DNA of 64,000 nucleotides from Blasia pusilla. Taxonomy: Eukaryota. Made by a program: the position numbers and the translations under genes. Of this stretch, positions 4,491 to 54,515 are shown piece by piece; position 1 is the first letter of the stretch, and every line of letters begins with the position of its first letter. The notes beneath the pieces were generated by a model, which ran no database searches, was not told where the DNA came from, and saw only the letters and a program-made list of their open reading frames with translations. The DNA is taken from the NCBI GenBank assembly GCA_050084515.1, contig CM114271.1:13640001-13704000 (forward strand). Reading direction: 5' to 3'.

Positions 4491-5416
4491 GAGGTAACAT
4501 TTATTTTCCATAACGTGCCTTGTTGGACTCAAGAGTGCAACCCTAATTTTAGGGTAGGAAACTTTTATCCGGTTAGGCCTGGCTCAGGCTAAAATTGAGT
4601 GGTTCCGATCTTGGATTCAGACTTTATTAGGTAGGATTGGTACAACACAATCCATCACTTGATATAAATTAGGGATAGGGCTTTGACTAGAACATCCAAT
4701 ATATATATATATGGGTTTATCACGTACACCAGTCATGCACCTACTTCCTTGAACGTTAGTCTTGTGTATGGTGGAAGCTTGTGTCAAGAAAGTCACACTT
4801 TGATTATTGATCTATACTCAAACACACTCAAATTAGCCATCATTTGGATAAACTAGCCGTACATCTCCCAACATTTGGTCTTAAAGCTCAAAATATCTAG
4901 ACGAGGTCAAATACCAACCTAATCCCTCATTCCCCAACACAAGAAAGTCATTCCAAACTTGGGATAGAATTCCTTCATCGTCTAGGGACTTTAAACGATG
5001 ATAGCGCATATAGCAATCCCAATTGCCCAATAGACCTTAAATAAGTTTGTAACTATGACTCAATGACTAAATCACAAGTGAAGATCCAAGGTTGATGTTT
5101 GTAATAGGTCCACCTGGACTTTTTTTGGTATTTCATGCACATACATATCATTGCATAAAATACATCATTGTCACCAAATATAAAAACGAAAATATGAGAT
5201 ACCATATTCACACATGTCATTTGAAGATAGGAATGATCATGTACCTAAATATCTCCAATAAAATCAAGATCACTCCAATCTCTCACATAATCTCCATTTC
5301 TCATGTCAAACCAAACTCACTTTCATAATAAGAGGCTTGGATTATCCTTAAGACAAGAAGGATCATAGCTCCATTTTCTCATGATAAGAGGTTTGACAAA
5401 GACATAATGAGATCCA

Positions 5417-5419
<3 letters not shown>

Positions 5420-5465
<46 letters not shown>
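5420..5465. repeat. (CT)n microsatellite
   Basis: Perfect CT run. Confidence 0.95.
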
Positions 5466-5466
<1 letters not shown>

Positions 5467-5799
5467 AACTTGTGCTCAGTAGGTTACATCCTTGGCTCTT
5501 GACCTGCAATAAGGGATCCATCTCGTGCCTTTTGCTCATCCCCACAGCTTTAAAGGTAGGATTTAGGTTCCAGACTTCCTAGGAGATCCTCCCCCTTATA
5601 GATGATTCTTGAGATCCTCAATACGATTTACTAGTAGTCTGATAGGCCGAAACCACGAGATATGGTGATATTATCATATCTAATGGTGCCATCACATGAA
5701 GAGAATTGATTGACAACTATAGCCATGAAGGTAACACATCCATAGTGCTTGCCCTTATGAGAAGAGTGTCATGATAAAAATATTTTCCAAGGAAGGGGA

Positions 5800-15568: not shown

Positions 15569-15700
15569 CACTCTAATTACAACTAGTGTGTTGCCCGATG
15601 CAGGGGTGACCAAGTTTCTTTTAAGACAACCCACTCTAATTACAACTAGTGTGTTGCCCGATGCAGGGGTGACCAAGTTTCTTTTAAGACAACCCACTCT
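15569..15700. repeat. Perfect 63-bp tandem duplication
   Basis: cactctaattacaactagtgtgttgcccgatgcaggggtgaccaagtttcttttaagacaacc starts at both 15569 and 15632. Confidence 0.95.
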
Positions 15701-18715: not shown

Positions 18716-18974
18716 TGGAGAGAAATCCACTGAAAGAAGAAGGAGAAAGTGCACAAACACCACATATACTTACCTAGCCACTTGCAAGGATAAAGGCATG
18801 ATATCTAAATGATCCTTGAGCAAGGTTTTGAGTCAAGGGCAAGAAGCAAGGAAGTGGGGAAGGTTAGTGGAGTTGGGTGAGACGTCGTGAGACAAGCTAC
18901 AAAGCACAAGGATCGGCAAGAAAATCATGAGACACCAAATGATGGACATGGAAACACATGTTTATCAATAAGGC

Positions 18975-19491
18975 TGTCACGTCCTTTAGGATAGATCGGT
19001 GAGATATAGTAGAGCGTCTTCAAGAGTAGTGGAGGACAGGCCTAGGAGGTTGAGGATGACCTGCTGTGGCCCCGGGAAACCTGAGAGAGCAGGTTTCCCC
19101 TTCGTTTTGGCTCATTTGGAGCCATATTGAGGAACTTACTATTTTAGGTAAATACCATTTTGAGTATATGATCGACTTTGTATTTTTGGTAAGTGGCCCT
19201 TGACCTCCTACATCAGGTCAAGAGCCAAAGAGGTGACTTGGGAGAATAGTTTACCATGGAGAGAGCTTGGGAGAGGGGAGGGGTATATATCCCAAGGAGA
19301 GAGAGAGCTTGAGAGCTCATTCTCTCTTTGTTAAACCTCTTGGCATGAGGCGGCGGAGCTATGGTCCCTTGCCTTGTGAGTGTAACCCAAGCCTCTCATT
19401 AGGAGAGTGGGTTTGGTTTGACATGAGAGAGAGTGCACACCTTTGAGAGCTATGGTGTGAGATTGTGTAGAGAGAGATTGGATCTTACTTT
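18975..19491 (+). repeat. Terminal repeat A1 of copy 1
   Basis: Near-identical to 29732-30250 (about 8 substitutions and one 2-bp indel by eye). Contains TATATAT at ~19284. Not followed by B. Confidence 0.95.
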
Positions 19492-21386
19492 ACAAAGAGA
19501 TAATGAGAGAAAGAGAGAATGCGAGAATGAGAGAGTGAGAGAGCTTCATGGGGGAGCTCGCTGGTCACTCGCTGTTTTTGAAGGTTGGGGACCGTGTTCC
19601 CCGTTGAACGGCTCATGGGAGTGCTCATCGGAGCACGGGTTGCTTGGATTGTTTTTTGCATTTGTCGATTTTTCGTGTGGAAGAGTGGCGCCGGAAGCGC
19701 TGCCCAATTTCTGATAGGGATTGAGTATGGGAGCGGGTTGCCCCATGCCAGTGCTTTCAAGAGCACCATGTTGCTTTCTGATTTGCATTTTTATAGGTTT
19801 TACATTTTTGTTGGGAGCAATCAGCGCGGAAGCGGTGCCGAATGTTGGGTAGAAGAAAGAGACATTGGGCTTTACGACAGTCCTGGTTAGTTTTTACTGG
19901 AATGTTCGATTCCAAACATTTTTTAATACTAGCGTAGATCGTGAAGCTGTGCACGATGTGCAACAAAAAATTGCGCAATTTGGAGTTGCAAGCAAAAAGT
20001 TATGGTCAATCTTGCAAAACTGCCATTGCTAGGCGATTTTTAGGGTTAAATTATGCAAACCCTAAACCAGGCGCCACACCGGAGGCGGCCGTCGCCGTCA
20101 ACCTTCAACGGTCAACTTTCACCATCAACGGTCAACCATCACCAGCGACGGTCAACCGTCAACCGTCACCATTCGTCTGTCACCATCAACAGTCAACCGT
20201 CACCGTCAATGGTCCACCGTCCGTTGTCCACCCTTGGTTTCCATTGCCGCCGTTACGGAGTGGAGGGTCTTCCACAACGTTCGTTGATTCTCGGACTTGC
20301 GTCACGATCACATACTTTGTTTTGGCCGCCACTGTCATCAACCTGTGATGGCATATGACCTCATGTTATAGTGTTTGAGTTTTGATTTCCTGCTGCTATG
20401 TTGTGATTGGTAGCCGCTCAACGACGACCGAGTATCGTGCCATGACGTCCGTAGCCACAACTCGCCGCCGATTGCCGCGCCGTGCAGCTCGTGGCCGCAC
20501 CGCACCGTCTTGATCGCGGAGCCGCTCCAGCATTGTGGAGCAGAGTGTGGGTTTATTGTTGATTGAGGAGGGTATGCCGCTGAGTGCGGCATCCCATCAT
20601 CGAGGGCCATGCCGTTCGTAGCCGTTCCGTGCCGCCTGCAACGCCGCACCATTCCGCTGGAACTGCACCGTCTATCGAAGAGTTTTGAGCAACGTCAGTA
20701 CAGGAGGAGTATGACTTGCTGATTGGAGGAGTTGTCTCCACGTCCGAGTTGGGGTCGAGATTCGCAGTTGCTGATGGAGCGACATCGACATGTGTTCAGG
20801 TTACTCATTCTAGTCCTTTACCCTGCACGTGTGAAGGATTCTAGGATTTGGGTAGTTTATTTGGAGATATTGGATGTGTGGATGCTGAGAGCATAATTTA
20901 TGTATGTGATTTAGGGGACATAGACCTATGTGGGATGTCCGGAGTTGAGGGTAGGTTGTCGATGAGATGATAGCCTGGTCGATTTGCCGCACCATGCCGC
21001 TTATTGCCGCACGTTACATATCTCGGGGAGAGAGAGTGGAGATCGAGTGCCGCATGTTTGGGATGAGTGATTGAGGGATTACTCGCGAGGCAAGAGTGAT
21101 CGGGTGAGAAGGGCACGAGGGTCATCAAGGCGTCCGTTCGGGACTTTGAGAGGCGAGGTGGTGAACCCGAGAGTAGCTCTAGAGGTTTTACGCGGAGTGG
21201 CCTGAGGTTCCAAGGATCTTCACTTCAAGGACCACCTCGACCTCCTTCTGTGTCATCGTCATACGAGGGGGAGGGTGTAGAGGAATTTGTGAGCACATTG
21301 CCACACTTTGTGAGTGGTCCTACAAGTTGGGCGTACGAGATGGACGACCGGGGTAGAGGTTTTCAAGTGCAGTAGGTACGATTGAG

Positions 21387-22362
21387 TTGCACGATTTCAT
21401 AGCAGAGTTTAGGAGTTGGTGCGACTCCGAGCGGGCCAGGAACTCTAGAGAGTTTAACCCGTTTACAACATGGAACGGTATGTTTCAACATTTAGAGGGG
21501 GCACCCATGGACGATTACCATGAGTTTTCCCACAGATATGCCCAGGAGATTGAGGCATGGCGATTCTACTACGACCCATATTATGTGTCATGGACGGAGC
21601 CACTCCCAGATGAGGAGGAGGAGTCAGGACAGGCTACTTCCTCTTCCACTAGTGATGTTTTAGGAGGGGTCACTCGCATTGGAGCAGTTGCACCGTCTAG
21701 TCGAGTTCGTCTTAGGTTCAACCCCGTGGTTGAGTTCTTTGCTGAGTTGAGGGCGAGCTACCAAGGGGTATGGATGGAAAAGTTGCGGAGCATCCACAAC
21801 TTCCAGAGGTGCCCGAGTGAGAGTTTACGTGAGGCTTACACCCGCTTGCGCCGGTTGATCAACGTCACTCAGGGGTTGACAGAGGCTCAGACTATCCAAT
21901 CATGGTACGCGATGGTGGACCAGACCCTACGGCCACGGGTGCGGGAGGGGGTTCTTCTTATGAACACCTCCCCTACGTTGAGAGATGTTTTTAGGACCGC
22001 CGAGAACATTGAGCGCAACATGGCAGAGGAGAGTGTAGCCACCATGGGTTCTGGGCGAGAGCAGTCGCGATTGGCTGCACCACCTGTGCAGCAACGTGGA
22101 CTCCGAGATGGGTCAACTGTGGCATCACGAGCTCAGGGAGGATACCGGGAGCCCGTGGCACAGAGACCTGCGCCTTCATATGCGGCTCAACAGCAACCAC
22201 CTACTATTACTTGTTGGTCATGTGGGGGAGCCCATCATCAGCGCCACTGCACTTGTCAGGGTCATGGACGTATGCCTTAGCATGGAGGAGGAGATGGTGC
22301 TGCACCAGGAGGTTATCAGTGTGACTATTATCAGAGGTATGGTCATACACGCGCCAGGTGTT
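21387..22362 (+). pseudogene. gag with two zinc knuckles
   Basis: Retrotransposon gag-like FQRCPSESLREAYTRL; knuckle CWSCGGAHHQRHC; second knuckle CDYYQRYGHTRARC after a frameshift (intact as CDHCHRYGHTRDRC in copy 4). Confidence 0.85.
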
Positions 22363-22574
22363 TCAATTTACATCCTGAGCTACGTTCGGACCGAGGGCCA
22401 GAGAGGGCACTAGAGCGAGTAGCCGGTCCGGGTGGGCCTAGAGATTGTGCACCAGGTGGTCCCGTTGGGGGACGAGGAACTGGATTTGCCCGACAGGGTG
22501 GTGGAACTGCCCGTGGAGGAAGTAGAGTACCACCACCTAGACGCGCCGAGGGAGACGCCGGATGTGAGGCTAGG

Positions 22575-23663
22575 ATGGCTGCTGAGATACAGCAGCTACA
22601 GGAGCAGATTGTTGCTATGGCATTGAGGTTACCCGATGCCGGATCCGTGGCATCGACATCATATGGAGCAGCTAGAGATCTGGAGGATCTTGGTTGGATC
22701 TGCGGGGTTGCCAAGATGGAGGCCGCTGCAGTTGTGACGCGTGGAGCAGCCGCAGAGTTGGATCCACAGCGAGGGGAAGCCAGAAAACAGACTAGACTTC
22801 CTCAGTCTTTCACGTTGTCCGAAGTGATGAGGACCCCATCGATGAGTCCTCATCAAAGTTCCTTGGGAGTTGGTGATGTTGTTGGTGTGCAGGCACGGAG
22901 GGTGATGGGAGAAGTGAGTGCGAAGACTCCTATTGTTGATGCTCAGGAGGGGCATGTGTCGAGCATATTGTTGGGGGCGGCCACCGTTGTGTACCGCACT
23001 CCTTTATTTTCTGCTTCCGATGTTATGACGTTGGGGGGTACGCCCGCCGAGGCTTTTCGGTTGGCCGCGTCGCTATGTGAGCGGAGAGTTGGATTTCCTG
23101 CATCACGTTCAGAGGTAATTGCAGAGGAGGTGATGGACCTGCCCTTGGAGCGGATGCTCGGACCGTCCACGTCAGATTCATGGCAGGCTGCGGCTGCTAG
23201 AATGGCGGAGATGCCCACTAGACCCGCGATAGAGCGTGCCATGGCTTCTCCTGGTGTTGTGTTGCTGGATAACCGAGGAAAGGTCTTCCAGTTGGTGAGT
23301 CCTGGAGGTAGAGCTTTTAGTCCGCAGCGCGTCTTGTTGGATTCAGGAGCGCAACCCTTGATGTTGGGGAAAGCGTCATTCAGAGGATTGGGCTTGACGA
23401 GAGCCGATATGGAGCGTTTTCCATTCCGGATACAGACATCCTTGGGTGGAGCGAGTACCACACAGTATATCACCCGACAGGAGATTGTGGTGAGGATTTG
23501 CTCGGGACATCCTACTGATGAGTCTGTGGTGGGCGCCAAGGCGATAGTGACTGATGTAGAGTCCTACGACGTCTTGGTTGGTGGAGCAGTGTTATACCCG
23601 ATGGGGTTTTCCCTGGATTACTGGGAGGAGTCAGCGCCCCATGACCAGGATGGCGATCGGTGA
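22575..23663 (+). pseudogene. Retropepsin-type aspartic protease region
   Basis: RVLLDSGAQPLML active site and YDVLVG C-terminal motif. Confidence 0.85.
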
Positions 23664-24048
23664 TGGGCGCCTTAGCTCATTACCCATTCGATTCACAGGT
23701 GCAGTGATCGAGCAACGGCCAGGAGAGATGGCGACCTTAGCAGCATTTAGCAGTGCCATCACTTGGCCTAGTGATTTGATTGAGGAACATGTCCATGCAG
23801 AGGATACTCCCATTCTTGACATTTCTATGGAGAGGAGTGTTATGGTAGCCGCATCATTCCATGGAGGAGAGGTGCCGTTGTGGGGCTCGAATGAGGAGCC
23901 TCAACGATTGGCAGATGAGCACGTGGAAACTGCGTGGAGCGAGGCTTTTGCACCGGAGCGTGATGGGTGTGAGGAACCCGAGGTAGCAAGGAGTGCTATG
24001 ATGACACCCTTGGATATCACACCCATTGTGTGGAGTATCCCGGAGAAG

Positions 24049-24995
24049 GGTATTCGAGTATTAGATCTCTTTGGAGGGATTAGCACGGGGTTAGCTGCTG
24101 TTTTGCAGGCAGGAGTGCGAGTGCAGCAGTATCTATATGTGGAGAGTGATGATGTTGCGAGGCGTGTCTCACTACAACATGTGGCGCAGTTACGCCTACG
24201 TTTCCCGAATTATTGTTTGCGTCCGCGGCACAAGGATACCAAAGTTCCCTACCGAGGGATATTTCGTTGTTGGGGGCGCAGGACTTAGAGCGGGTAGGGA
24301 CCATTGATTTGGTCATTGTCGGTTGGCCATGTCAGGGCCAATCGAGTGCTGGACGAGGCAGCGGGTTGGTTGACACTCGGTCCAGGTTGTTTTGGGAGAT
24401 GTTGAGGGTCTTACGGCAGTTGCAGGAGCACCGGTCTTGTTCTCCAGCCTACATTTTGGAGAATGTGCTGATCTTAGGAGACTCCAGGTCACGGGTGGTG
24501 ACGAGTGCTCATCAGGTGGGTGCCTGGATCGGCCCAACAGTGTTCTTGGATGCGGCGAGTGTAGGTTCTAGAGCCCATCGCCCATGTCTATGGTGGACCA
24601 ACTTGGTGCCCCATGCGGTGTTATGAAGGGCGTATGCGAGAGTGGAGCGCCCCTCCCATTTGTTAGTGGATTTCATTCTGGATCTAGGTCGTCAATCACA
24701 AGCAGTGAGGCACGATGATCGACCATCGTTGACTGTGGTCAACAGGGTAGGCAGGCCGCGGGTTGCCATGCCCACGTTTGTGAGTTTTCCCGCTTCCTAT
24801 GCATACAAGGAGACCGGTCCTGGCTTGGTTTGGGATGACCAGGTTCAGCGGTTAGTGGAGCCCAACGCCGACAAGAGAGAGCGAGCGATGGGATTTCCCA
24901 TAGGAGTGACAGCAGTACCATCAGTGTCAGAGGCATCATGATGCCATGTCTTGGGTCAGGCGATGGACCTGAATTGCTTGACATGGATCCTCAGC
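24049..24995 (+). pseudogene. DNMT3-like C5 cytosine DNA methyltransferase domain within pol
   Basis: Motifs in canonical order: I IRVLDLFGGISTG, II YVE, III RDI, IV DLVIVGWPCQ, RSRLFWE, VI ILENV, VIII RAHRPCLWWTNL, IX ERAMGFP, X LGQAMD. One frameshift and in-frame stops. Confidence 0.92.
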
Positions 24996-25399
24996 TTGGG
25001 AGTGGCTGAGCAGCGTCGTATGAGATCGCGAAGATCACGGCCGGTTGCAAGCAGTGAGCCCCATGCCTACCGAGACGGTGGAGGCAGTGGCTGGGGGCGA
25101 GACCCGAGGAGATCGGGAGAGACACCCTTGGACTTCTTGGGATGTTTTGCAGCGTACGCAAGAAGATGATAGCCACAACATCGAGTGTGGTTTCGGGCAC
25201 TGCATGTGGAGGAGTTCAGAGTTTGCAGTTGGCTGCAGGAGAGCGGCCGAGTGTTGTTGTTCGAGACCGGGTTGCACCATAGCAACCACCGATACCCACA
25301 CCGGAGAGTCCTACCGTAGTCACGATGGAGACTTGGGAGCCACATATGGGCCCTAAGTTGAAAGGAGGAGAGCGGCGCCGAATACATCAGTTCCTCATG

Positions 25400-27400
25400 A
25401 GTTATAGGAGCTGCTTTGCGTTTAGCATGGAGGATTTGGGTACGCTGAAGGGATCGGGGATCCGCATTGAGTTGTCGAGTGATACGCCAATCTTCTGACG
25501 ACCCTACAGGTACAGTGATATGGAGAGGGCTCTGATTCAGAGTAGGAGCCAGGACTTGGTCAGAGCAGGACTAGTGGAGATGTCGCATGGGGAGTATGCA
25601 TCTGCCGCTCTCATGCCCGCCAAGAAGGATGTGCATGGCAACTGGACGGATAGGCAGATGTGTGGGGATTACCGACCTATCAATCGGCAGACGAAGTCCG
25701 ATAGGTATGCCATGCCCACCCATGAGGAGATCTTTGATGCGATTGGTCATGCAAAGGTCTTCAGTTCATTGGATTTGCGAGCCGGATACCATCAGCTGCC
25801 TATCAGATTGGAGGACAGGCAGAAGATGGCATTTTGGGGCATCGATCCTCACGGGAAGGATTGTTTGTACCAATGGCGGTTCTTACCATTTGGGTTAAAG
25901 AACGCCCCGGGTGAGTTTCACAGGGTCATGGATAGGATCTTGGCTGGTTTGGATTTTGCTAGGTGTTATATTGATGACATCGTAGTCTTTAGCGCCACGG
26001 TTGAGGAGCATGAGCGACATCTAGAGGAGGTGTTTTGACGATTGCAATTACATGGGCTGAAGCTACATCCAGGCAAGTGCAAGTTCCATTACGACCAGAT
26101 TGAGTACTTGGGTCATACGATATATATCCAGGGGGCCTTGGTGTTCAGCAAACGAAGGTAGAGGCTATCTGTCGCGACCCTCATGACCAAACAAGTGCCA
26201 AGCGGAACATCGGAATATTAGCGGGCTCACGCTAAGATGGTTTGCGCGTTGGAGTGTCTCAAAGAGGAGACAAGAGACGAGACGCGAACGAGGAGTCGCG
26301 TTTCAGTTGTTATGGTCGCGACTAAGAAACGTGGACCAAACGCGGAATGAGACTTGGAAGAAGTCGAGTCTAGGAAGTGGGTTGCCAAAGGGAAGATCCG
26401 GATTTGGAACGCCACTAGCGTTTGAGAGTTTCCGACTGTATTTATGGCCATAACTTTTAGCTCCAAGATGCGTTTGGAGAAAATAAGGGTGCGATGGAAA
26501 GCTTATGGAGAGCCGGTCCAAACGCACTAGAGATTGCTGCAAACGCATAAGCAGCGGCTGAGATACGACCCGAAAACGACTGTAAGTGGAGTCGGGTTGA
26601 GGGCCACAATGAAGGGCCCGACCCTCTTTTCCCAAAGGGGAGGGGTTATTGGAGAACCCCAGAAGTACTAGTAAGGGGGAAGGTCTCCGAGAGTGCTTGG
26701 AACCCAAACCCCACTTTGGGCGCCGCGGGGCGGCTCAAGGGCATGGAACGGAACGCGAGTTTGGGCGTTGGGTTGGAAAACCTGCACCAAGTCCATTGAG
26801 GTGATTTTAGACATCCCTCTTGGAATTCACACCGCGACTCAATTACTTGGGTCTCGGTTCAGAACTCACCCGAGGACCGTTGAACAGTTGGGATCGCTAG
26901 GTGCGCAAGGGCCGTTTCAGATCCCTGGACCAACCAGGAAGTCTGTTCCAAGTCTTGAAGGACTTGCCATGTTTTGGAAGCTAGGAACTAAGGAAGGTTG
27001 AGCTTGATGAGACGCCGAGTTGAGGACTCGGTGGGTTGGAACGCCGGTTGGCCCAAACCCAACTAACGGAGTGCGTGTTTGGGTGCAGATCGGCGATGAG
27101 TTCGTGACCTATTGAACGCACGCTTCCGCAACACTAAAGATTAACGTTCAAGGAGAGTAGGGGCGCGACACTATCTCACGCATTCCACGCCCTACAGATG
27201 TGAGCCATGTTCGCGCATTCATGGGATTGGCGAACTTCTATCGGTGATACGTGAAGGGATTCAGTTCAATTGTGAAGCCATTGGCCTTGTTGACGAAGGT
27301 GAATCACGAGTGGCACTAGGGGGATGAGGAGGAGCGAGCATTTCAGTTGCTCAAGGACAGGTTGACTTCTGCGCCCATCTTGAGGAGACTGATCAGGGGG
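25400..27400 (+). pseudogene. Gypsy-type reverse transcriptase, interrupted by a solo LTR
   Basis: MCGDYRPIN, SSLDLRAGYHQL, LPFGLKNAP, YIDDI. KVEAI/SRIPRP rejoins when 26170-27170 and one TSD copy are removed. Confidence 0.93.
26170..27170. mobile_element. 1001-bp solo LTR of an unrelated retrotransposon inserted in RT
   Basis: TGTCGCG...CGCGACA termini; 5-bp TSD CTATC (26165-26169, 27171-27175). Confidence 0.88.
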
Positions 27401-27412
27401 TGTCCTTTCTAG

Positions 27413-27886
27413 TTGCACACAGATTGGAGCATGTTGGGGCTTGGAGCCGTGCTCACCCACCATGATGATGAGGGTAGAGAGTTCGTGGTGGCTTATGCTA
27501 GCCGCTCGAACAACGCTGCAGAGGCAAAGTACAACTCGTATGAGGGTGAGTGCTTGGCTGTGGTATGGGTTGTCGCGCATTTCAGGTGTTACTTTTTCGG
27601 CAACCCCTTTACCATCATCACTGATCATCAACCACTGAAGTGGTTGATGGAGTCCAACAAGCTTACAGGGAAGCTTGCGAGATGGGCTCTGTTGTTGCAG
27701 GAGTATGATTTTCAGGTGGTACATAGACCTGGGACGCTCAACCAAGATGCAGATGGGTTGAGTCGTAACCCATGCCCGAGTCAGCGAGATGCGACTGGAG
27801 CTCGATGGCATGGAGAGAGTGATGAGGAGTTGGTGCCAAGATGGCACGCGTCAGCCTATTTAGGCATGTTGGCTATGGAGAGCTAG
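27413..27886 (+). pseudogene. Gypsy RNase H
   Basis: LHTDWSMLGLGAVL, VAYASR, YEGECLAVVW, TDHQPL, LARWALLLQEYDF, NQDADGLSR. Confidence 0.93.
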
Positions 27887-28149
27887 AGTGTGGAGACTTC
27901 GATGGCGAGGTCTAGTGGAGAGTCCTTGGATCCCGAGGCCAGTGAGGAGACGACAAGTGGTAGAGATATTCATGATGATGGAGTAGTCTTGGAGTACCTT
28001 CGTACTCGCAACGTTGCGAGCACCGTGGATGCTAGAGAGCAGGATCGGATCCTATATCGGGCCTGACGGTTCCGTTGGGAGGGGTACATATTTTGAGGGT
28101 TTGGGAGGATGGCAAAGTACACGTAGTGCCGCATCCTTCGTAGAGAGCA

Positions 28150-29215
28150 CGACTAGTGCAACATGCCTAGGAGGAGTTGGGTCACTTTGGGGTGAAGCGG
28201 AAGTACAGCTTGCTCCAGATTCAATATTGGTGGCGAGGCATGCAGACTGACGTTCAGCAGTTTGTTGCCAGGTGCATGGTGTGTGATCGGGTCCGAGCAT
28301 CGTTCAATGCTCCGACTCTACAGTTGCATCCATTACCGATCATGGGCTTAGGGTATAGATGGAGTTTGGATTTTGCAGGACCTTTGTCTTTGACGGTGCG
28401 TCACAATCGTTATGTGTTGGTGATGGTCGAGCACTTCTCGAAGTGGATCGAGTTGGTTGCATTGCCTGACAAAGCGAGTGAGGGAGTAGCTTATGCCTTC
28501 CTTGACAGAGGGCTAAGTCATTATGGCACACCGGATGAGGTGTTGACAGACCAGGGTACCGAGTTTAGCGGTGAGTTCCAGGCCTTGTGTGATCACGCTC
28601 TGATCGACCACCGCACGACATCGCGAGATCATCCCGAGGCGGATGGATTAGCAGAGAGAGTTGTGCAGACGGTGAAGAGGGGTTTAAGCAAGTTTGGCTT
28701 GCAGAGAGGGCACCTAGGAGATTGGGACCTCCAGTTGCAATGGTTGGAGATGGGATACAGATTCAGCAGGCAGGTAGGCAGGCATCCTTAGCGTCTTTTT
28801 CACCGTACTTGCTACTTTATGGCCGAGAGCTAGATTTACCTGCGGCCATTTGTCAAGATGCTGGTGAGTTGCTAGACCTTAATGACCCAGATGTATGGGT
28901 GCGAGCATGTTCTCAGAGGGCTGAGTTGTTTCGGAGAGCGATGCCCATGGCGTTCGATAACTTGGCGATTGCGCAGCATCGAGATACGTTGAGGTATGCG
29001 ACTATTCGGGATGGTGGTTATCGACCAACTATCCGGAGGTTTCATCAGGGAGATTATGTCTACTTGCAGTAGACGGCACTGACGACGTTGGATGTGACTG
29101 CAAGGCGCACTATCTTGAGAGTGCGTGACGTTTTGCCATCCGGTGTTCTCTCGCTGGAGGGACGCGATGGTATGGTATGGAAGGACCATGTGTGTAATTG
29201 TGCACCATATCACCT
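28150..29215 (+). pseudogene. DDE integrase
   Basis: GHFG...CMVC zinc-binding region; core WSLDFAGP, LTDQGTEF, GLAERVVQT. Confidence 0.93.
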
Positions 29216-29273
29216 TCCTAACATTGATAGTACAGTGGATTCGAGCTTAGCAGTAGGTCCTGCAGGCTTGTAT

Positions 29274-29414
29274 TGTATGTTGTGTGGTTCTGCCCGTTGT
29301 GCGGCCACGATGCTAGTCTGTGATGGTTGTTCGAGAGGTTGGCATATGGCATGTCTGACGCCACCTCTCACTAGGGTTTCTCGAGGACAATGGATGTGTC
29401 TCAGATGTACATAG
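29274..29414 (+). pseudogene. PHD finger at the C-terminus of integrase/pol
   Basis: CMLC...LVCDGC...WHMACL.PPL...GQWMCLRC is a C4HC3 pattern, followed by a stop. Confidence 0.9.
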
Positions 29415-29601
29415 AGGAGATACTAGGTAGGTTTCGATCCCGACCTTTTTCTCTGACATGGATGACAGGAAGGCGACTAACGATGGGGCCACATGAGCAC
29501 CCAGCCTTCTTGCTCTTAGCGTCTGAGAGATGTATGCCATGGTAGGTAGGGATAGATGGCTATCTAGAGTTAGAGGGACCTAACCACCAGCTATGGGGGT
29601 G

Positions 29602-29729
29602 ATTGGAGATATTTTGGTACTTCGTGTCTCGTTGTTTGGATGGCATGAGTTAGCATGGGATCGTGCGTGTTTGTGTGAGTGTTCAGTGATAGCGATGTAT
29701 GTTGTGTAGCGATATGTATGCGCACGACA
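29602..29729 (+). repeat. Repeat B1 of copy 1
   Basis: 128 bp, attggagat...cgcacgaca; matches 30251-30378. Confidence 0.95.
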
Positions 29730-29731
29730 GC

Positions 29732-30250
29732 TGTCACGTCCTTTAGGATAGATCGGTGAGATATAGTAGAGCGTCTTCAAGAGTAGTGGAGGACATGCCT
29801 AGGAGGTTGAGGATGACCTGCTGTGGCCCCGAGAAACCTGAGAGAGCAATTTTCCCCTTCGTTTTGGCTCATTTGGAGCCATATTGAGGAACTTACTATT
29901 TTAGGTAAATACCATTTTGAGTATATGATCGACTTTGTATTTTTGGTAAGTGGCCCTTGACCTCCTACATCAGGTCAAGAGCCAAAGAGGTGACTTGGGA
30001 GAATAGGTTACCATGGAGAGAGCTTGGGAGAGGGGAGGGGTATATATCCCAAGGAGAGAGAGAGAGCTTGAGAGCTCATTCTCTCTTTGTTAAACCTCTT
30101 GACATGAGGCGGCGGAGCTATGGTCCCTTGCCTTGTGAGTGTAACCTAAGCCTCTCATTAGGAGAGTGGGTTTGGTTTGACATGAGAGAGAGTGGACACC
30201 TTTGAGAGCTATGGTGTGAGATTGTGTAGAGAGAGATTGGATCTTACTTT
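29732..30250 (+). repeat. Repeat A2 of copy 1
   Basis: Copy of 18975-19491, separated from B1 by a 2-bp GC linker. Confidence 0.95.
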
Positions 30251-30378
30251 ATTGGAGATATTTTGGTACTTCGTGTCTCGTTGTTTGGATGCCATGAGTT
30301 AGCATGGGATCATGCGTGTTTGTGTGTGTGTTCGCTGATAGCAATGTATGTTGTGTAGCAATGTGTATGCGCACGACA
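30251..30378 (+). repeat. Terminal repeat B2 of copy 1
   Basis: Copy of B1; ends CA, followed by TSD AGGC. Confidence 0.95.
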
Positions 30379-33300
30379 AGGCGCAAAGGAATTGGGATGA
30401 GATTCCACAGGAGTTTGGGGAAGTATAGATTGGAAACATTTGCCATGAGACTCTCCATAGTCATCTTGGTGGTTAACTATCCAAACGCGGTTTCTTGAGA
30501 TGTGAACCAAGTTTGGGTTAAGAACCACAACCAAGGGCCCGCGGTGGATGTGGAGAAAAGTAGGGTTCTACGATAAAACTCCCAAAATACCTATAGGGAG
30601 GGACCAAGGTTGCACGCGGACAAATGTCCGTCCCAAGGACGAACATGTCCATGCGGGCTCGGGTGCAGGCTCCATGAGCCTGTGTTGCCTGCGACCCGCA
30701 CCCGCACCCGGGCCCGTGCACACCAAGCATTCCACCCTTGCCCGGCCAGTGTGCATCACGCTCGGCGTTTGTTTTTCGGTAAGGCTCGCGTCGCGGACAA
30801 GTTGGGCCCATGTCGCGTCCTTTGATTTGTTGCTTCTGACCCTAGCCCACATTCGGGTTCTATGGCCCACGTAAAGCCTGCGCACGGGCTTCGTGGCTCG
30901 CGACGCCTACCCTCCGGCGCGCAAGCCCGCCCCGCCCTCCCCGGCCTGCATGCGGGCTCGTGAGCCCGCCTTGCCTCCCCTCCTTCCCCCCGGCCCGTTG
31001 TAGCCCGCGCGGGCCTTGCCAAATTGTGGGGCGCCATGTGGCACCGCTATTCGTAGCCCGCCGACAATTGCCCCCACCATAGCCCGCCGTCAACGGCCCA
31101 ATCGTTGGCGCCCGCATTGAGCCCGCGTCTCGCGAATCCCACGGGGATATGTGGCGGCCTGGGAGTGGCTAGGGGCAAGTTCAAACTTGGCCCCGCCCCA
31201 TCCCCTTCCCCACCTTCCCCTTTTCTCCCTTTTGGGTAAAACCCATAAGAGAAGGGCCCACAAGAGGCTCCAAAATGTACATATGGAGGGGGGATTAAGG
31301 ACTTAATTACCTAATTATCACTAATTTCCCCTATTTATCTAGTTTTTTGGTGTTATTTTGGATTAGGCTCCAAATTTTTATGGTGCCTTGATAGCTAAGG
31401 GCTTTCAAGGTTACTAGGAATTTTGGAGAAATCCCTTGGGTGCCTTTTGGGGGTACTTGGATTTTATTTAGGACCAACTTGGATATTTGCGCTCCTTGTT
31501 ACATCCTAAAGAAATTCCAATTGACTCCACATTAGGTGAGTGCTTGTGAGTACGGATTTTTTATTTTCTAAACTTGTTTGGCCATTTTGAGATTTCCGAT
31601 TCATAGACCCCACTGTTTTGATTTTGATTTTGATTTGTTTCATTGGTTCTCCTTAGTACATCGGGGATATGGAGGTGATCAAGGAACCTTATCTAAACAC
31701 ACCCATATCTACCTTTTCCCTTTGAGTGCCCAACCCTAAACTTAGACCGACGTTCCATCATTCACGCCCGCGTACATTCTGAGCCATTTTTTTAGCATCT
31801 CGCGTCATTATCTTTTCGGTATTTTCTTATCTCAACTCGTACATTTCTTTCCCTTGTATTTTTAAAAGATTTTTTTATCTTCTTCATCCGAGGAAAATAT
31901 CTAGTGGGGCTGGGTCATCAAGAGCGGAAGAGAACCGAAACAAGTCCAACGTTGGTGCCTAGAGGCAAAGAGAAAATTTGAGAAATGATTTCAACATGGC
32001 CGTAAGAGAGGCATGGTTAGACTAGTTTTTCCAGCTTTCTTTAGATAAGAGACAATCCTCCATTTTGAGGGGTATGGATGGTTTCCATGACTACACCTTG
32101 GAATTGTAGAGATTTTCCAATAGAGTGGCAAAGGCATTTGACTGGGAAGTGGATGCCGCGGAGGCTGATAGGTTAACTAAATTGTGTGACCAACAAGGTG
32201 CTAACCTGGAGAGAGCGTATGTCAATCTCAAGACATATAAGGATGAGAAGTAGAATGCTGCAAAGTTGGCTAGAAAGATTCTATGTAGAGTTAAGAAGTG
32301 CTCAACGTCTTTTTAAGGGACGTAGTACTTCTCTAAGGTTGACATTGACCATTCCATGTGCAATAACATTGATTTCGGATAAGAATGTAGTAGTAGGACA
32401 TGACTCGAGAAATATCATGGAGATTGGTTTACACGGAATTGTGTACTGTTGTAAAATAAACGGAACCCATGGCTTTAGGGAAGAAATATACAATTGCATG
32501 AAGGTGTAAAAGGAATCATCTCTATCAGGATCTAGGAAATCGATGATGCGCGAGGAGTTATTTGCAAGTATTTTACATCGCGATGTTGTCCGCATGGTGG
32601 GAAGGTTGATCGGGGATCCACTGCGTACCATTTTCCCATATTGGAATGATGGACACCTCTTAATCCAAGCACACAAGTGCAAGATCTTTTGAATTGGATG
32701 AAGGCAATCGTAGTAAGTGAAGGAGGGGCTCTCACGCCAAACAATTGGCCCAAATGCATGATCTACTTCAACCCAGTTGCTGCAGAAGGTTACTACGTGA
32801 CAGACATATATAAATCTTGTTATTGGCATCCAAATTGTCTTCATAAGGCCATGCTACTATCTCTCAAGTGTCAAACTTGTTGACAAGCTTGGTCAGGAAG
32901 ACTCTATCACCTTTTTGACATATCTTTCCGCGCTTCTGCTGGCAGTGCATCACCCACATATTGGACGTAAACCGAAGAGCAAGAAAATTTCACTTTCAGT
33001 TTGGGACATCGTAGCCCCCGATCGAACTATAACCCCGAAGTGAACATGACGGGGTGGTTCAAGCATTAATCCCTTGTTAGCAGAGGATTGATTGGGCAAT
33101 GCGAGCGTGGCTGGTCCGCTTCATTGACATGTACGATCGAGGAGAGCTCATCCATGAAATAGCCATTGATCTCCAAAATCAAGAGGCGGAAAACTTCTTC
33201 TTTGCTCAGAGGTTGAATCCACAAGAACTTTGAGACGCCCTCAATACAACTCGACAACTTGTGCTAAACCATCATCAAAATCCATGGGTGGATGACCTTG

Positions 33301-34379
33301 TTTTGAGGAGACTCGAATTGATCTTGCCACCTTTCTTATGACAAGATATTCCTCAAAGGATTGAAGGCGGATATCCTCAAACATACTATTACCCTCGTCG
33401 AATGTAGGAGGAACTCCTTGGATTCTTTGAGAGGGAGTGGGAGATGTTTTCAACACAGCCAACACAAGAAATAAATGATCGTGAAGCCCATGTTGAGTTG
33501 GAAAGGACTATTCCTCGTGGAGGTGGGACGCGCGTGACTAGAGCTAGGGGAAGAGGAGGAAGAGTTGGTGAGACGTCTCGACGGTCTTACATATCTCTGA
33601 TGATGAATCAGATTAGATAGAATGAGTTCATATTTATATCTTTGTAATGTACATAAGTATTAGGTTCCTCTCAATCCAGATGTTTTGTGAGGTACTCCTC
33701 ATTTTTTGTAAATATATTTTAAAAAAAATTCAAAATATTCCACTGAGGAGACTTGTGAATATGAGCCGGTCATAAATGTTGTCCATGAAGTGAGTTCATA
33801 AAATGGATAAATTTTTTCTCTTGGGTTATAAGTCCTTGGATAAGGTGTAGGGTACGATAATTGAAAGGTTTGTTTGATATAAATTTAAATATTTTATTTA
33901 TTACTAACTCTTCAAAATTTACTAACTCATCAAAATTAGTGATTTTATTTTATTTATTGAAAGATGAGGATTGGAAAAGGGATGAATTTGTTTTCCAAAA
34001 TTAATGAAGGAAAATATATGTTTGAATCTAATTGTAAAGGAAAATAATGTATGAATTTTTTTTAGTGACCAATATTGCATGGGGTAGAATTTGAAAGGGA
34101 TTTACATGGGATAGAAATTTTTTTAATACTATAATAGGTGAATATAAATATTACCAAAAAAAGAGAAAAAAAGATAAAGAAATTATTTGTGCCTTCATTC
34201 ATATGTAATGGAAAGGGAAATTGAATTTTAATGGAGAAGGAAAAGATTTGGTTCGAATTTTATGGAAGGGTGAATTTACTTACGAGACTAGGATATTATT
34301 TACATTTGAATTCATGACAATAATTACTTACAAGAGTGAAATATAATAACTCTTCTAAGATTTTACAGGATAGTGCAGA

Positions 34380-35310
34380 TGGTCCCCAAGTTACATCTAT
34401 CACTCTTGCAAAGTCTCAACCTAGATGAAGTTATGACCACAACTTAAAAAATGACCTTTTGGACCCCAAGAACTAAACCTTGAATGAAAAAAAGGTCTTT
34501 AATTTTTGATCTTGTCAAAAATTTCCATCTTGAGTTGAAATTTGGCTCACATGGTCTCCAAAATGTATGTAACACTCTTGCCAAATGGAGTTGGGACCAC
34601 AAGCTAAAAAATTGGCTAGTCCTTTTAGGACCCTAACCATGAGATCTTTTATCAAAATAAAGTTTTGTCATTTTTCATCTTCTCCAACTTTCCCATCTTG
34701 AGCTGAAATTTGGCCCACATGGACCCCAAGGTGCATGATCCACTTTTGCCAAGTTTTAAGCAAAATCGAGTTGGAACCACAAGCTCCAAAATTGGAAAGT
34801 CCTTTTTCAACCCGAACCATTAGACCTTCCATCAAAATGAAGTTTTTTCATTTTTGATCTTGTCTAAATTTCCCATATTCGGCTGAAATTTGGCCCACAT
34901 GGTCCCCAAGGTGCACGTTCCCCTCTTGCCAAGTTTCAAGAAAAATGGAGATGGGACCACAAGCTCACAAATTGGCAAGTCCTTTTAGGACCCGAACTAT
35001 CAGACCTTCTATCAAAATAACTTTTTTCTATTTTTCATCTTGTCCAACTTTCCCATCTTGAGCTAAAATTTGGCCCATATGGTCCCTAAGGTGCATGTTC
35101 CACTCTTGCCAAGTTTCAAGAAAAATGAATTTGGGACCACAAGCTCAAAAATTGGAAAGTCCTTTTCGGACCTGGATCATCAGACCTTCTATTAAAATAA
35201 AGTTTTTTTTATTTTACATCTTTTCCAAATTTCCCATCTTGACCTGAAATTTGGCCCACATGATCCCCAAGGTGCATGTTCCACTCTTGCCAAGTTTCAA
35301 GTTAAATGGA
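34380..35310. repeat. ~180-bp tandem array, ~5 units
   Basis: (g/a)aaatttggc(c/t)ca(c/t)at recurs at ~34536, 34705, 34886, 35064 and 35246. Confidence 0.9.
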
Positions 35311-35329
35311 GTAGGGACTCTCTATACAC

Positions 35330-41684: not shown

Positions 41685-43560
41685 TCTCGTGCCAGTAGAC
41701 ATCAATGCAAACAGACATCGGCTTTCATGCACACAAGTCTAACATCTATCTAACTATGAATCCTAACACATCTACATATGAACGACTGGACAACCCAACA
41801 ATAAAATGCCACGTTGATCAAATGTGCAATCAACTATGCCTAGTCCAAGAATCCACTCAATGATACACAGTCTGCAATGAACTCTCAATATGTGTGATTT
41901 CCGATCAAACCTATTTCATTCTTCAAAAGAGAATCTAGGCTCAATACATGCAAGTTACATTGTATCATGGATCCCAACATGGGTTTGATCTAAGGAAGAT
42001 GAACTTTGAATGAACTTCATTCGAGGTACACCCCCCTTGGGCACCTCCCCGGGTGACTTGCACACACAGGTAATCTCCTCCTAGCAGGTCACCAACGACC
42101 TAGAGAACACAAGGTACTAACTCCCTAACAACTACATACAAGGTCCTTTCATAAGGTCAACTAATACTCAACTCAAAACTAAAACTCAAACCCTGTAGGC
42201 CCAAGTGGTTCCACACAAAGGATAACATGGTGAACCTCCCCAAGATTGCTACTTCTCATAAAGGGAAGCATGACCTATGGTTGTAGATCACCTCCTAAGA
42301 GCATGTCACATATTACCTCTTAAAATGGGGAAGTACAAGACCCATCTAATATAAGGCCTCAATACTATTTCTCCTTACATCTCATCTACCATAATAGTTG
42401 TCATGTAAGTTGACATCGTTGCCAACATAGATGCGTTGTCATGCACACAAGTCTAAGATCCATCTAATTATGAATCTAACACATTTACACATGAACGACT
42501 AGAAAACCCAAATCATCCCTCTAGCTGGTGGTTAGGTCTAAGTATAAATATTATGCACCTTTCTGTGCTAAGATCAAGAGGTTGGGTGCTATGTTGCCCT
42601 ATCATTAGTCACCTTCTTGCAATCCATAACATCAAGAGTCATCTTGTAATCTACTTATAATATCTATGTACATTTGGGGCAAAATCAACGTCACTAAGGA
42701 ATCAAATGAAGAAGCGGTGTCGAACAAAAATATATGCCATACTTGAGAACACCCATCATAGACTAGCATCGTGGCTACTCCGTTAGAAGACCCATACAAC
42801 ATACATCTCAAACTTGTAGGAACAAGTGCCAAACTCAGATCAATAATCCCATCCACATTCAGAAGATGATATGGTGCATAGTTATGTACATAATCTCTGT
42901 AAAGGGGGACCATCACAAGCTTCTAAAAAAAAGTACAGTTTCCTAAAAGTAAAAACTCTTGTCGTAGTACTTGCAGAATAGTGCATCCTATTGTCACGTC
43001 CTATGTTGTTGATGCCATTTGCGTAAGTAGACATAATCAACATGATGGAATAGTCGTATCCCTTATTGATACCTCAGAGTATTGCGATGCCAAGCGATAG
43101 CGAGGTTCTTAAATGCCATAAGCATGGTACTCCAAAAGATCTCAGTCGGTTGAGAATATGCTTGCATCCAAAAGTCTGGGTCATCAAGTTCAAGTACTTA
43201 GACCACATCTATACTAGCTCTCTCCCATAGAGCAGGAAATACGATGAAAATAATGCCAACCATGCTTGTCGATTGGAGCAATAACCCATTGCACCAACCA
43301 TAAAAATTATAGGTCCCAATCTCTTAAGTGTCCTCTTTGCAGCCGATACTTGCGTAATGCTCTTCTCACTATTTGCAAAACTCTCTCTGCCAAACCATCT
43401 ACCTCCAAATGATCTCGAGAAGTTGACCGATGACCAATCACCACCTGATGCCACAAGGCATGAAAATCACCCCTAAACTCAGCACCCTAGCTTATCAACA
43501 CCTCCGCTGATGCGCCAAAATGAGTAAGCTCTCAATCAATAAATGCATAAGCGGCTCCAA
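41685..43560 (-). mobile_element. 3' fragment of DNMT-gypsy family (copy 3): integrase end, PHD remnant, B-A-B repeats
   Basis: B copies at ~41685-41800 and ~42399-42512, with A between them; PHD remnant CMLYGSSNGVATMLVYDGCSQVWH; integrase remnant FSSYFLLYGREL. Confidence 0.85.
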
Positions 43561-45153: not shown

Positions 45154-48100
45154 TGTCGTGCGAATACACATCGCTGCTAACATACATCAATTGTCATGCA
45201 TACACATGTCTGAGATCCATCTAGCTATGAATCATAACATCTCTACACATGAACGACTAGACAACCCGAATATAAAGTTGAATATGCACTGTAAACTCTA
45301 ATGAAATCTACAATTAACCATGCTTCATCCAAACAGCCATATTCGTGAATCAGATACTACACACTGTTGTTACAGCAAGAGAAAGTATACACAAGGACTC
45401 CCAAAATATGTGATCCTCCTTATTGATCGCTCCAAACCCACTCTTCAAGAGAGAATCCAGGCTCAATACATGCAAGCTGCATCGTATCACGGATCCCAAC
45501 ATGGGTCTCCAATCCTAAGCAAATGAGCTCGAAATGAGATTCATCATAGGTATACCCCCCTAGGCACCTCCATGGGTGATCTGTACATACACGTCACGTC
45601 CCTCCTAGCAAGTCACAACCAACCTGTAGTACATAAAGTACTAACTCTCTAACAACTACACATGTGGTCCCCTCATGAGACCAACTACCAACTAACCCAC
45701 GACCCTATAGGTCTAAGTGGAGTCATACATGGCTGGGAAGGTCAACCTCTCCAAGGTTACCACTCCTAAGAGCACGTCACATATGATCTCTCAAAATAGG
45801 GAAGTACAAGACCCCTTTAAGGCCTTGATACTATCTCGCCCTACACCTCATCTACTATGACAGTTGTCATGCGAATACAGATCGCTACCAACATACATCG
45901 GCTATCATGCACACACATATCTAAGATCCATCTAGCTATGAATCCTAACATCTCTACACATGAATGATTAGAAAGCCCCAATCTCTCCCTAGCTTGTGGT
46001 TAGGTCCCTCTATCTCCACATAGCCTACAAAACAAGTCTAAATGCTATGCATCTTTTCGGTGCTAAGATCATGAGGTCGGGTGTTATGTTGCCCCATCGC
46101 TAGTCACCTTTGAGCAATCCATAACATCAAGAGTCATCTTGTAATCTACCTATCACCTATGTACATAAGGGATAAAGCCAACGTCCCTGAGGAACCAAGT
46201 TAAGAGGCGGCGTCAAACACGACATATGCCATACTCAAGAACAACCATCACAGACTAGCATTGTGGCTGCGCCTCTGGTGGATCCACACAACATGCATCT
46301 CAAGCCTGCAAGAATAAGTGCCAAGCTTGGATCTTTCCAAACGGTACCATCATGACCCTATAAAACTAGGACTCCTGAAGGTAAAATCTCTCGCACTCGC
46401 AGAATAGTGCATCCCGCTGTCACATCCAATGTGGTTGGTGTTGTCTGCTATAGGTAGATATAATTGCCAAGATGGAATCTCCAAAATCCTTTTCAATAGC
46501 CTCCTCCACGCGTAGTCGCATACTTCAGAGTATCGCAATGCTAAGCGATAGCCAAGTTTTCAAACGCCATAGGCATGACTTTCCAAAAGAGCTCAACCCG
46601 TTGAGAACACGCTCGCACCCATACGTCTAGATCGTCGAGGTCAAGTACCTCAACCACATCTCGTCGAATTGACAACGATCACTCTGCTCTCTCCCATAGA
46701 CCAAGGAATACGGTGAAAATGATGCCAAGGACGCCTCCCGACTGAAGCTGTAACCCATCGCCAACCACAGCAAGTGTAGGTCTCAATCTCCTAAGTGTCC
46801 TCTCTGCAATCCATACTTGCACAATCCTCTCTTCATCGTTTGCACAACTCTCTCTGCCAAACCATCTGCCTCTGCATGATCTTGAGAAGTTGTACAATGA
46901 TCTATCAGTGCGTGATCGCACAAGGCCTGAAAGTCACACCTAAACTCAGTACCCTGGTCTGTCAATACCTTTGCTGGTGCACCGAAATGAATAAGCACTC
47001 GATCAAGAAATGCATAATCCGATCCCTCACTTGACCTATCCAAAAATGCTATGAACTCAATCCACTTGGAGAAGTGCTCCACCATAACCAACACGTACCG
47101 ACTATGGCGTCTTGTCAATGGTAAAGGCCCCGCAAAGTCTAAACTCCAACTATACCCTAATCCCTTGATTGGTAAAGGATGCAAGTGTGGTTTCAAAGCA
47201 TTGAATGATGCCCCTACCTATCACATGTACATACAATGCATCTGGCTATAAATTGCTAAACATCAGTCTCCATACCATGCCACCAATATTGAATCCGAAT
47301 CAAGCTCTACGTACGCTTGACTCCAAAATGCCCTAACTCCTTGTGAGCATGTCTCACAACTTGTGCTCGTTGCAAAGCATGCAGCACCATCGGCACTTGT
47401 CCATCCTCCCAAACTCGAAGCACATGCCTCCCCTCCCACCTGAACGTCCTAACTCGATGAAGAACTTGATCCCGCTCTCTAGCGCCCACCGTGCTCGCTA
47501 AGACACATGTGCGTAGGTACTCCAAGACCATCTCATCGTCGTGGATGTCTCCAGTCCCTATTAACTCCTCACTAGCATATGGATCTAAGGACTCACCATC
47601 CAACCTCCCTCCTGGAGTGGATGCCTCCTGTTGACTTGACATAGCCAACATACACAAATAGGCAAATGCATGCCAACCCGACACCATCTCCTCATCACTC
47701 TCACCATGCCACCTCGCTCGAGTCGCATCGCTTTGGCTCGTGCATGGGTTATGACTCAACCCATCCGCATCTTGGTTCAGATGTCCTAGGAAATGGACAA
47801 CATGAAAATTGTACTCTTGCAACAAGAGTGACCATCTCGCAAGCTTATGTGTAAGCTTGTCAGACTCCATCAACCATCTGAGTGGCTGATGATCAGTGAT
47901 GAGCGTGAAAGAGTTCCCGAACAAATAACATCTGAAATGGGCCAATGCCCACACTACAACTAAGCACTCCCCCTCATAGGAACTTTACTTTGCCTTCGCA
48001 GCATTGTTTGAGCGGCTCGCATATGCCACTAAGAACTCCTTCAACTCATCATCTCTCTAAGTGAGCATCGCTCCTAACCCCAACATACTCCAGTCCGTAT

Positions 48101-54434: not shown

Positions 54435-54515
54435 CACACACTCAGTAGTGTGTGTAGAAACACACTCAGTAGTATGTGTAGAAATACACTCAGTAGTGTG
54501 TGTAGAAACACACTC
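54435..54515. repeat. 24-bp minisatellite, ~3.5 units
   Basis: cacactcagtagtgtgtgtagaaa repeated head to tail. Confidence 0.9.

Follow-up and report, generated by a model that had tools for sequence, protein, structure and literature searches.

Abutted termini at an internal junction of the split direct repeats in a gypsy-type, Dnmt3-carrying retrotransposon of Blasia pusilla

We analysed a 64,000-nucleotide stretch of the Blasia pusilla genome (assembly GCA_050084515.1, contig CM114271.1, positions 13,640,001 to 13,704,000 of the forward strand; hereafter the window, with coordinates counted from its first base) that harbours a decayed retrotransposon, element 1, together with several of its relatives. 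Repeat searches and BLAST inside the window delimited two repeats, A and B, which are arranged in element 1 in the order target-site duplication, A1, internal region, B1, GC, A2, B2, target-site duplication (18970-30382, plus strand). The left arm, A1 (18975..19492), begins with TGTCACG and is 98% identical to A2 (29732..30251; 10 differences in 520 columns), while B1 (29602..29729), an internal copy of the right arm that ends in ...GCGCACGACA, is 94% identical to B2 (30251..30378; 8 differences in 128), the right arm itself, with which the element terminates in CGCACGACA. Comparison of the flanks (...ATAAGGC/TGTCACG on the left and ...CGACA/AGGCGC on the right) revealed a target-site duplication of AAGGC at 18970..18974, with AGGC as its unambiguous part, and of AGGC at 30379..30382, extended to AAGGC when the terminal A (30378) is included. 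This duplication encloses the entire A1...B2 unit, not its component repeats. A GC dinucleotide also directly precedes A1 (18973-18974), where it is the end of the target duplication and a 1-in-16 coincidence. Within the right terminus, the homology between A1 and A2 ends at the very base at which the homology between B1 and B2 starts (30251).

At the boundary of B1 and A2 the two tips of the element are joined. Positions 29720-29741 read directly on the plus strand as GCGCACGACA GC TGTCACGTCC, with the perfect 10-bp palindrome GACAGCTGTC (GACA-GC-TGTC) at 29726..29735. This site coincides exactly with the B1/A2 boundary, the right tip (CA) and the left tip (TG) being separated by the 2 bp at 29730-29731, and the halves of the palindrome are the same sequences as the outer tips of element 1 beside the target-site duplication. 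Both the sequence and the repeat boundaries therefore bear out the original prediction for this stretch, according to which the right-end sequence abuts the left-end sequence across a 2-bp spacer; what that prediction did not recognise is that A...B-A-B is a known architecture, that of split direct repeats, and that a combination of this architecture with gypsy domains had been reported before, for KnitGypsy-Dnmt3 (see below). We rejected the notion that the palindrome is a statistical oddity in itself, the window containing 80 perfect 10-bp palindromes versus ~62 expected. It is the position and recurrence of the palindrome, not its mere presence, that go beyond chance. GACANNTGTC is found three times in the window, at 29726, at 45859 (the junction of element 2, described next) and at 30619. 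The last of these sites (30619-30628, GACAAATGTC) belongs to the right flank of element 1, away from any repeat boundary, and is probably there by chance.

The same arrangement recurs in the relatives of element 1, as B1, 2 bp, A2 and B2 follow one another behind a purine-rich tract at all three of the 3' ends that the related elements retain in the window. Element 2, which is diverged from element 1, lies on the minus strand and has a body extending to ~49951, displays at its 3' end (45154..46010) the purine-rich tract (46010-45983), B1 (45982-45865), the spacer AC (45864-45863), A2 (45862-45272) and B2 (45271-45154). Just the last ~1.9 kb (to 43558) of element 3 is present, likewise on the minus strand, and its 3' end (41685..42545) starts with the purine-rich tract, followed by B1 (42513-42399), the spacer AC (42398-42397), A2 (from 42396) and B2 (~41799-41685). 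The junctions of elements 1, 2 and 3 read GACA-GC-TGTC, GACA-AC-TGTC and GACA-AC-TATT, respectively, and the spacings from B1 to B2 are 649, 711 and 714 bp. The spacer, for which the original prediction had called for a check across copies, is of constant length (2 bp; GC, AC and AC), and the random variation that would have spoken against the prediction was not seen; conservation of the palindrome, to be checked along with it, held for the tips of element 2 but not for element 3, in which the TG half has decayed to TATT. Although the three elements diverge by 20-40% in their repeats, they have the same layout and the same 2-bp spacing, and we are confident that the junction is a family-wide feature of split direct repeats.

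Comparison of the B copies speaks to how the repeats are maintained. Within an element B1 and B2 are 94, 86 and 79% identical, and between elements B copies are 57-78% identical, with no clustering by position. Because B similarity is highest within an element and is not grouped by position, this pattern of identities indicates that B1 and B2 are renewed from one template in each cycle and do not descend from an old, drifting duplication. A more diverged A-B fragment on the minus strand (5132..5720), in which A runs directly into B, may be solo-like or a 3' piece; we did not count it as a fourth junction, as the sequence upstream of its A aligns unconvincingly with B1. The 64 kb contain at least four further decayed relatives of element 1 in all (4237-7431, 35580-37388, 41685-43558 and 45154-49951, the last two comprising elements 3 and 2), three of which share the minus-strand orientation and one of which is interrupted by the A-B fragment and a piece of RNase H (4744-5720). 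The family thus clusters or inserts into itself.

Between its terminal repeats, element 1 comprises a non-coding leader (19493..21356), the end of which is set by the alignment of residue 13 of a homologue at 21357, and a decayed gag-pol region (21357..29414) that is delimited by Pfam and Protein Data Bank (PDB) matches and by collinearity with bryophyte proteins, its reading frame being broken by many stops and frameshifts. The leader, of 1.8 kb, includes tandem repeats with a period of ~20 nt and CCGTCAAC-like units (20075-20216). We scanned 55 plus-frame open reading frames (ORFs) of at least 45 amino acids and 12 minus-strand ORFs of at least 100 amino acids against Pfam, admitting matches to tyrosine recombinases at E<=1. 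On the plus strand we found, in this order, a weak gag signal (21357-22277), a Dnmt3-like C5 DNA methyltransferase (24153-24626; PF00145, with DNMT3A/3B as best PDB matches), a reverse transcriptase (RT; 25499-26038), a gypsy-type RNase H (27413-27886), an integrase with zinc-binding (H2C2) and DDE (rve) domains that was also recovered by PDB matches (28171-28791) and a PHD finger (29073-29414). The pol domains of element 1 are of the gypsy type and in the order RT, RNase H and integrase, which is also the order in element 2. The PHD finger after the integrase occupies the place of the chromodomain in chromoviruses. No tyrosine recombinase (Pfam Phage_integrase) was detected at E<=1 in the 55 plus-frame and 12 minus-strand ORFs, a very diverged or destroyed gene remaining compatible with this result.

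The closest solved structure to the integrase is Ty3 Gag-Pol (7q5b, E 1.8e-15), followed by the integrase of prototype foamy virus (PFV). Upon alignment with Ty3 7q5b, the motifs SLDF, TDQG and GLAE of element 1 are matched and the D,D35E spacing is retained despite the decay of the copy; we take the catalytic residues to lie within these three motifs. The stretch VMVEHFSK was considered as a changed catalytic aspartate and rejected, as the alignment with Ty3 places it off the catalytic site and D, D and E are all present. An integrase stretch, LVMVEHFSKWIE, is identical in element 1 (28171-28791), in element 2 (46801-47178, minus strand) and in a Sphagnum fallax protein (P0037), and is the counterpart of VVVDRFSK of Ty3, not the catalytic site.

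A protein search with the methyltransferase piece returned 37 proteins at E<=1e-5 (48-76% identity). The named matches are all from bryophytes (Marchantia polymorpha, Calypogeia fissa and Sphagnum, 48-70% identity), and no Klebsormidium sequence is among the 37. One homologue (P0007) combines RT, RNase H and DNMT, another (P0037) a DNMT-like sequence and rve, and the Marchantia and Sphagnum proteins are collinear with element 1 from 21357 on. By its domains element 1 classes as a Ty3/gypsy-type retrotransposon with a Dnmt3-like methyltransferase, a PHD finger and a D,D35E integrase. In keeping with Ty3/gypsy elements, it has TG..CA tips (TGTC...GACA) and a 4-5 bp target duplication (AAGGC/(A)AGGC), which among the copies in the window were found in element 1 alone. 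By contrast, its left repeat consists of A only, and the two complete and identical long terminal repeats (LTRs) of Ty3/gypsy elements are not present. Our literature searches found no paper on Dnmt-gypsy elements in bryophytes.

Two candidate priming sites for reverse transcription adjoin the repeats at informative places. The purine-rich tract, GACCTAACCAC(C/A)AGCTA with a G/A run behind it, is kept in all three elements and directly adjoins the first base of B1 (29573..29601 in element 1, ending in ...GCTATGGGGGTG), and the bases preceding A2 are not purine-rich. If this candidate is the polypurine tract, plus-strand DNA, and therefore the LTR, would begin with B. At the other end of the internal region, A1 is succeeded by 15 nt (19493-19507) whose reverse complement agrees at 14/15 positions with 19316-19330 (CTCATTCTCTCTTTG), a candidate RNA 5' end and self-primer in A1 that lies 32 nt downstream of TATATA at 19284 (TATA-like box, 19284-19290). 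A complementarity of 14/15 at offset 0 was unique among 2000 downstream offsets and was reached by none of 1000 dinucleotide-preserving shuffles of A1; moreover, the target 15-mer is within a block that is conserved in the diverged fragment 5132-5720. A second, overlapping, GA-rich primer-like copy is located at ~19507-19522, and we refer to 19493..19522, which adjoins the end of A1, as the candidate self-priming primer-binding site. It would fit the pattern of Tf1-type self-priming, as predicted from one copy. A TGGCGCC... motif near 19683 was dropped as a tRNA-type primer site, since it lies ~190 nt past A1 and would fail to generate the 3' end that is observed; the 64-kb window contains no tRNA genes for primer comparison. 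On the basis of the purine tract and the primer-like site taken together, the reverse-transcribed LTR is predicted to be B-NN-A, which supports the B-gc-A form put forward in the original prediction at both of its ends and leaves B-NN-A itself a prediction from sequence.

The candidate primer site would have its parallel in Tf1/sushi and Tcn1-clade elements, in which the primer site pairs with the 5' end of the element's RNA, not with a tRNA. For the Tcn1 clade in mosses and club-mosses, self-priming is predicted by Neumann et al. (PMC6317226). Element 1 differs from them in that a PHD finger, not a chromodomain, follows its integrase and in that its self-priming is predicted from one copy.

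Split direct repeats of the form A1 ... B1-A2-B2 characterise the PAT-like, Ngaro and VIPER elements, members of the order DIRS with a tyrosine recombinase of their own (PMC4157794, PMC6681497, PMC7192593). Like element 1, PAT, Ngaro and VIPER elements are described there as running A1 - internal - B1 - A2 - B2 with an internal copy of the joined termini, and their insertion is thought to proceed from circular forms through site-specific recombination. By contrast, the integrase of element 1 is of the DDE type and its RT and RNase H are of the gypsy type, and the element ends in TG..CA tips beside a target duplication. Insertion without a staggered-cut duplication, as in the order DIRS, does not apply to it, as 4-5 bp of duplicated target flank the element. 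The nearest published counterpart is KnitGypsy-Dnmt3 of Klebsormidium nitens, a gypsy element with a Dnmt3 (de Mendoza et al. 2018, PMC5890265), whose repeats are called "the same as that of a DIRS retrotransposon" in the legend to Fig. 4c of that paper, with the DIRS structure being defined as "A-coding region-B-A-B" in the legend to its Fig. 1e. As far as the text and legends describe it, KnitGypsy-Dnmt3 resembles element 1 in that its pol, of the gypsy type, contains a Dnmt3-like C5 methyltransferase and in the DIRS-like order of its repeats; differences are the PHD finger after the integrase of element 1 and the fact that the named protein relatives of the latter are from bryophytes. The text and legends consulted in PMC5890265 are silent on the sequence of the junction, its spacer, any target duplication, priming sites and mechanism, and literature searches for split repeats combined with a DDE integrase returned nothing beyond that paper.

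Abutted tips are known from other DDE systems as well. The joint of a retroviral two-LTR circle has 4 bp between CA and TG. In IS3 and IS30, which are bacterial DNA elements, circles with abutted ends 2-3 bp apart serve as the active junction for a DDE enzyme, and each excision supplies the spacer anew from the flank of the donor; we draw on IS3/IS30 as an analogy only. Element 1 differs from them in that its spacer is inherited through RNA. The integrases of PFV and human immunodeficiency virus type 1 (HIV-1) cut the palindromic two-LTR junction in vitro, which for PFV is proposed to feed integration (abstracts of PMC1180852 and PMC1905944), and the corresponding statement in the original prediction, that some retroviral integrases cleave palindromic LTR-LTR junctions, agrees with these abstracts. 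The PFV and HIV-1 joints are, like that of element 1, palindromic CA...TG joints of DNA tips, and according to the same abstracts a retroviral-type integrase can cleave them. They differ in that the retroviral joint arises only after reverse transcription and is absent from the provirus, whereas element 1 harbours its joint in the integrated copy as well as in the RNA, the tips being 2 bp apart.

We propose the following scheme for the origin of this layout. Transcription would start in A1, ~30 nt past the TATA box, minus-strand DNA would be primed at the self-complementary site adjoining the end of A1, and plus-strand DNA would be primed at the purine-rich tract adjoining B1. The resulting reverse-transcribed LTR would be B-NN-A, not A-B, and the linear complementary DNA (cDNA), [B-NN-A]-internal-[B-NN-A], would have no TG..CA tips at its ends, the tips instead lying back to back inside each LTR. 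The integrated form A...B-NN-A-B would then be a permutation of two B-NN-A LTRs in head-to-tail linkage, be it in a two-LTR circle or in a concatemer, and the A2/B2 joint would be the LTR-LTR joint, in which the last base before the primer site is fused to the first base after the purine tract. The sequence of the A2/B2 joint matches this expectation. Host end-joining or template switching could give rise to this joined form, and the data are compatible with a circle as well as with a concatemer.

Integrase would next open one of the B-NN-A junctions by nicking 3' of CA on both strands, that is, after 29729 on the top strand and opposite 29732 on the bottom strand, 2 bp apart. Cutting 3' of CA with a 2-base 5' overhang is the reaction reported for integrase (PMC1636480). 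Because the two nicks would be 2 bp apart, each new end would have its CA-3'OH recessed behind a 5' overhang of 2 nt, which is the ordinary 3'-processed substrate, and these ends would then be inserted with a 4-5 bp target duplication. Such a geometry could also explain why the length of the spacer is fixed and its sequence can vary. Both the D,D35E enzyme and the target duplication are in keeping with DDE strand transfer. We put the probability that integrase cuts the junction in a tandem-LTR intermediate at roughly one half. The stronger version of this reading, that the internal junction of abutted ends is the obligatory substrate of the DDE integrase and that the B-NN-A LTR and head-to-tail joined LTRs are true intermediates, is one that we advance tentatively.

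Several observations weigh against this scheme. The decay of the TG half in element 3 leaves one of the three junctions without an intact palindrome. In element 1, B1 and B2 differ by 6.3% versus 1.9% for A1 and A2 (Fisher p = 0.014), an excess that would not be expected of copies identical at insertion, unless B has the higher mutation rate; of the eight B1/B2 differences, three are CpG to CpA changes in B2, and the excess may reflect faster decay of the CpG-rich B or, alternatively, B2 may not be copied from B1 in every cycle. There is a single 5' end in the window, that of element 1, and the succession of A1 and primer site rests on this copy and on the cartoon of the Klebsormidium element: BLASTN, TBLASTX and TBLASTN searches with bryophyte homologues revealed no second boundary between A1 and leader in the window, and matches to the leader elsewhere in the window are GA microsatellites only. 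The primer complementarity sits in GA/CT-rich sequence and in one copy. The RNA fold of the putative 5' region is more stable than that of shuffled sequences (z = -3.3) without singling out the primer pairing; in the minimum free energy fold the 5' end pairs with a different GA tract, and the centroid uses the second copy at ~19507-19522. The start of transcription is a guess from the position of a TATA box. All copies in the window are decayed and activity is demonstrable for none; the circle, the cDNA ends and the enzyme activity are predictions from sequence. Finally, the accepted precursor of retroviral integration is linear DNA.

The explanation that best survives besides cleavage of the junction, and one that we consider rather unlikely, is that the ends are restored in the manner of DIRS elements with no circle involved, B1-NN-A2 acting only as the template for the missing parts of A1 and B2 on a linear cDNA, of which the integrase uses the linear TG..CA ends. 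The order of the repeats is indeed that of PAT, Ngaro and VIPER elements, as described in PMC4157794 and PMC6681497. For DIRS-1, PMC7192593 has the internal junction copy as essential and the cDNA as mostly linear and single-stranded. The homogenisation of B copies within elements is likewise in line with templated restoration. However, plus-strand priming before B1 would leave a left end that starts with B-NN, and a cut at the junction would be needed anyway; no order of priming that we could devise would place B behind A at the right end unless an A/B template or an end-to-end joint was available; and the primer-like site after A1 points to strong-stop synthesis in the style of gypsy elements.

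Improbable in our judgement is that we are dealing with an ordinary LTR element whose LTR is A-B, in which B1 is the fossil of a duplication in the 3' untranslated region and the 5' LTR of element 1 lost its B by deletion. That the window holds a single 5' end, that B1 and B2 are less alike than A1 and A2, and that contiguous A-B units exist can be read in this way. Yet the homology of A1 and A2 stops at the very base where B begins, and because the A and B homologies meet at 30251, where a random deletion would be expected to end ~1 time in 650, it is disfavoured that a normal 5' LTR lost its B to such an event. Nor would such an element account for a primer-like site placed exactly at the end of A1, for a purine tract that is conserved before B1 and has no equivalent before A2, or for B1 and B2 evolving in concert in each element and not by position, and the published relative is drawn as A-coding-B-A-B (legends of PMC5890265).

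We regard as very improbable that element 1 is mobilised in trans by a tyrosine recombinase encoded elsewhere, with its DDE integrase irrelevant to the junction. What this possibility has in its favour is that split direct repeats are elsewhere a property of tyrosine-recombinase elements (PMC4157794); against it, the 4-5 bp direct duplication and the TG..CA tips are marks of DDE integration, no Phage_integrase domain is found in the ORFs of element 1 (55 and 12, at E<=1), the D,D35E signature is retained even in a decayed copy, and the same integrase stretch is present in element 2 and in the Sphagnum protein. A chance palindrome, an assembly artefact or the insertion of an LTR beside another LTR can practically be dismissed, for 10-bp palindromes are common (80 in the window) but the layout and 2-bp spacing recur in three elements that are 20-40% diverged in their repeats, the target duplication brackets the whole A1...B2 unit, and segmental duplication as the source of the recurrence is argued against by the divergence and the different flanks of the three copies.

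The window contains other repeats besides this family. A satellite of ~180 bp is present in at least five copies that are 64-86% alike (34376-35333) and truncates the relative at 35580-37388 on its 3' side. Three copies of a tandem repeat of ~348 bp, 75-86% alike, are found at 56862-57904, a perfect tandem duplication of 63 bp (copies 100% identical) at 15569-15694, and short tandem repeats of 24-nt, ACACTCAGTAGTGTGTGTAGAAAC-like units at 54414-54509, near direct repeats of 200-320 bp (53696-54194).

The existence of a gypsy-Dnmt3 element with split direct repeats is already in print in the form of a figure legend; here it is accompanied by bryophyte relatives. To that description the window adds the sequence of the junction, the constant 2-bp spacing, the target duplication and the candidate priming sites. 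In the textbook view, the substrate of retroviral-type integrases is linear cDNA with free ends, and circles lead nowhere. The split-repeat layout suggests that the integrase of these elements instead cuts an internal junction, not free DNA ends: the tips are kept joined inside diverged elements that encode such an integrase, which is hard to explain unless the enzyme cuts there, and the constant 2-bp spacing would give standard processed ends. If cleavage of the junction is indeed how these elements integrate, the element would carry its own attachment site internally. Cutting one junction would yield A...B-NN-A-B, and cutting both would yield an insertable A-B unit and an A-internal-B unit. 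The family would then embody a convergent, DDE-based version of the DIRS strategy and would be a living counterpart of the abandoned model in which circles are the precursors of retroviral integration. Marchantia is easy to handle in the laboratory, and because relatives of element 1 occur there, the use of circle-type junctions by a DDE integrase in vivo is directly testable. With their Dnmt3-like methyltransferase and PHD finger, these elements also bear on how transposons deal with the chromatin of their host.

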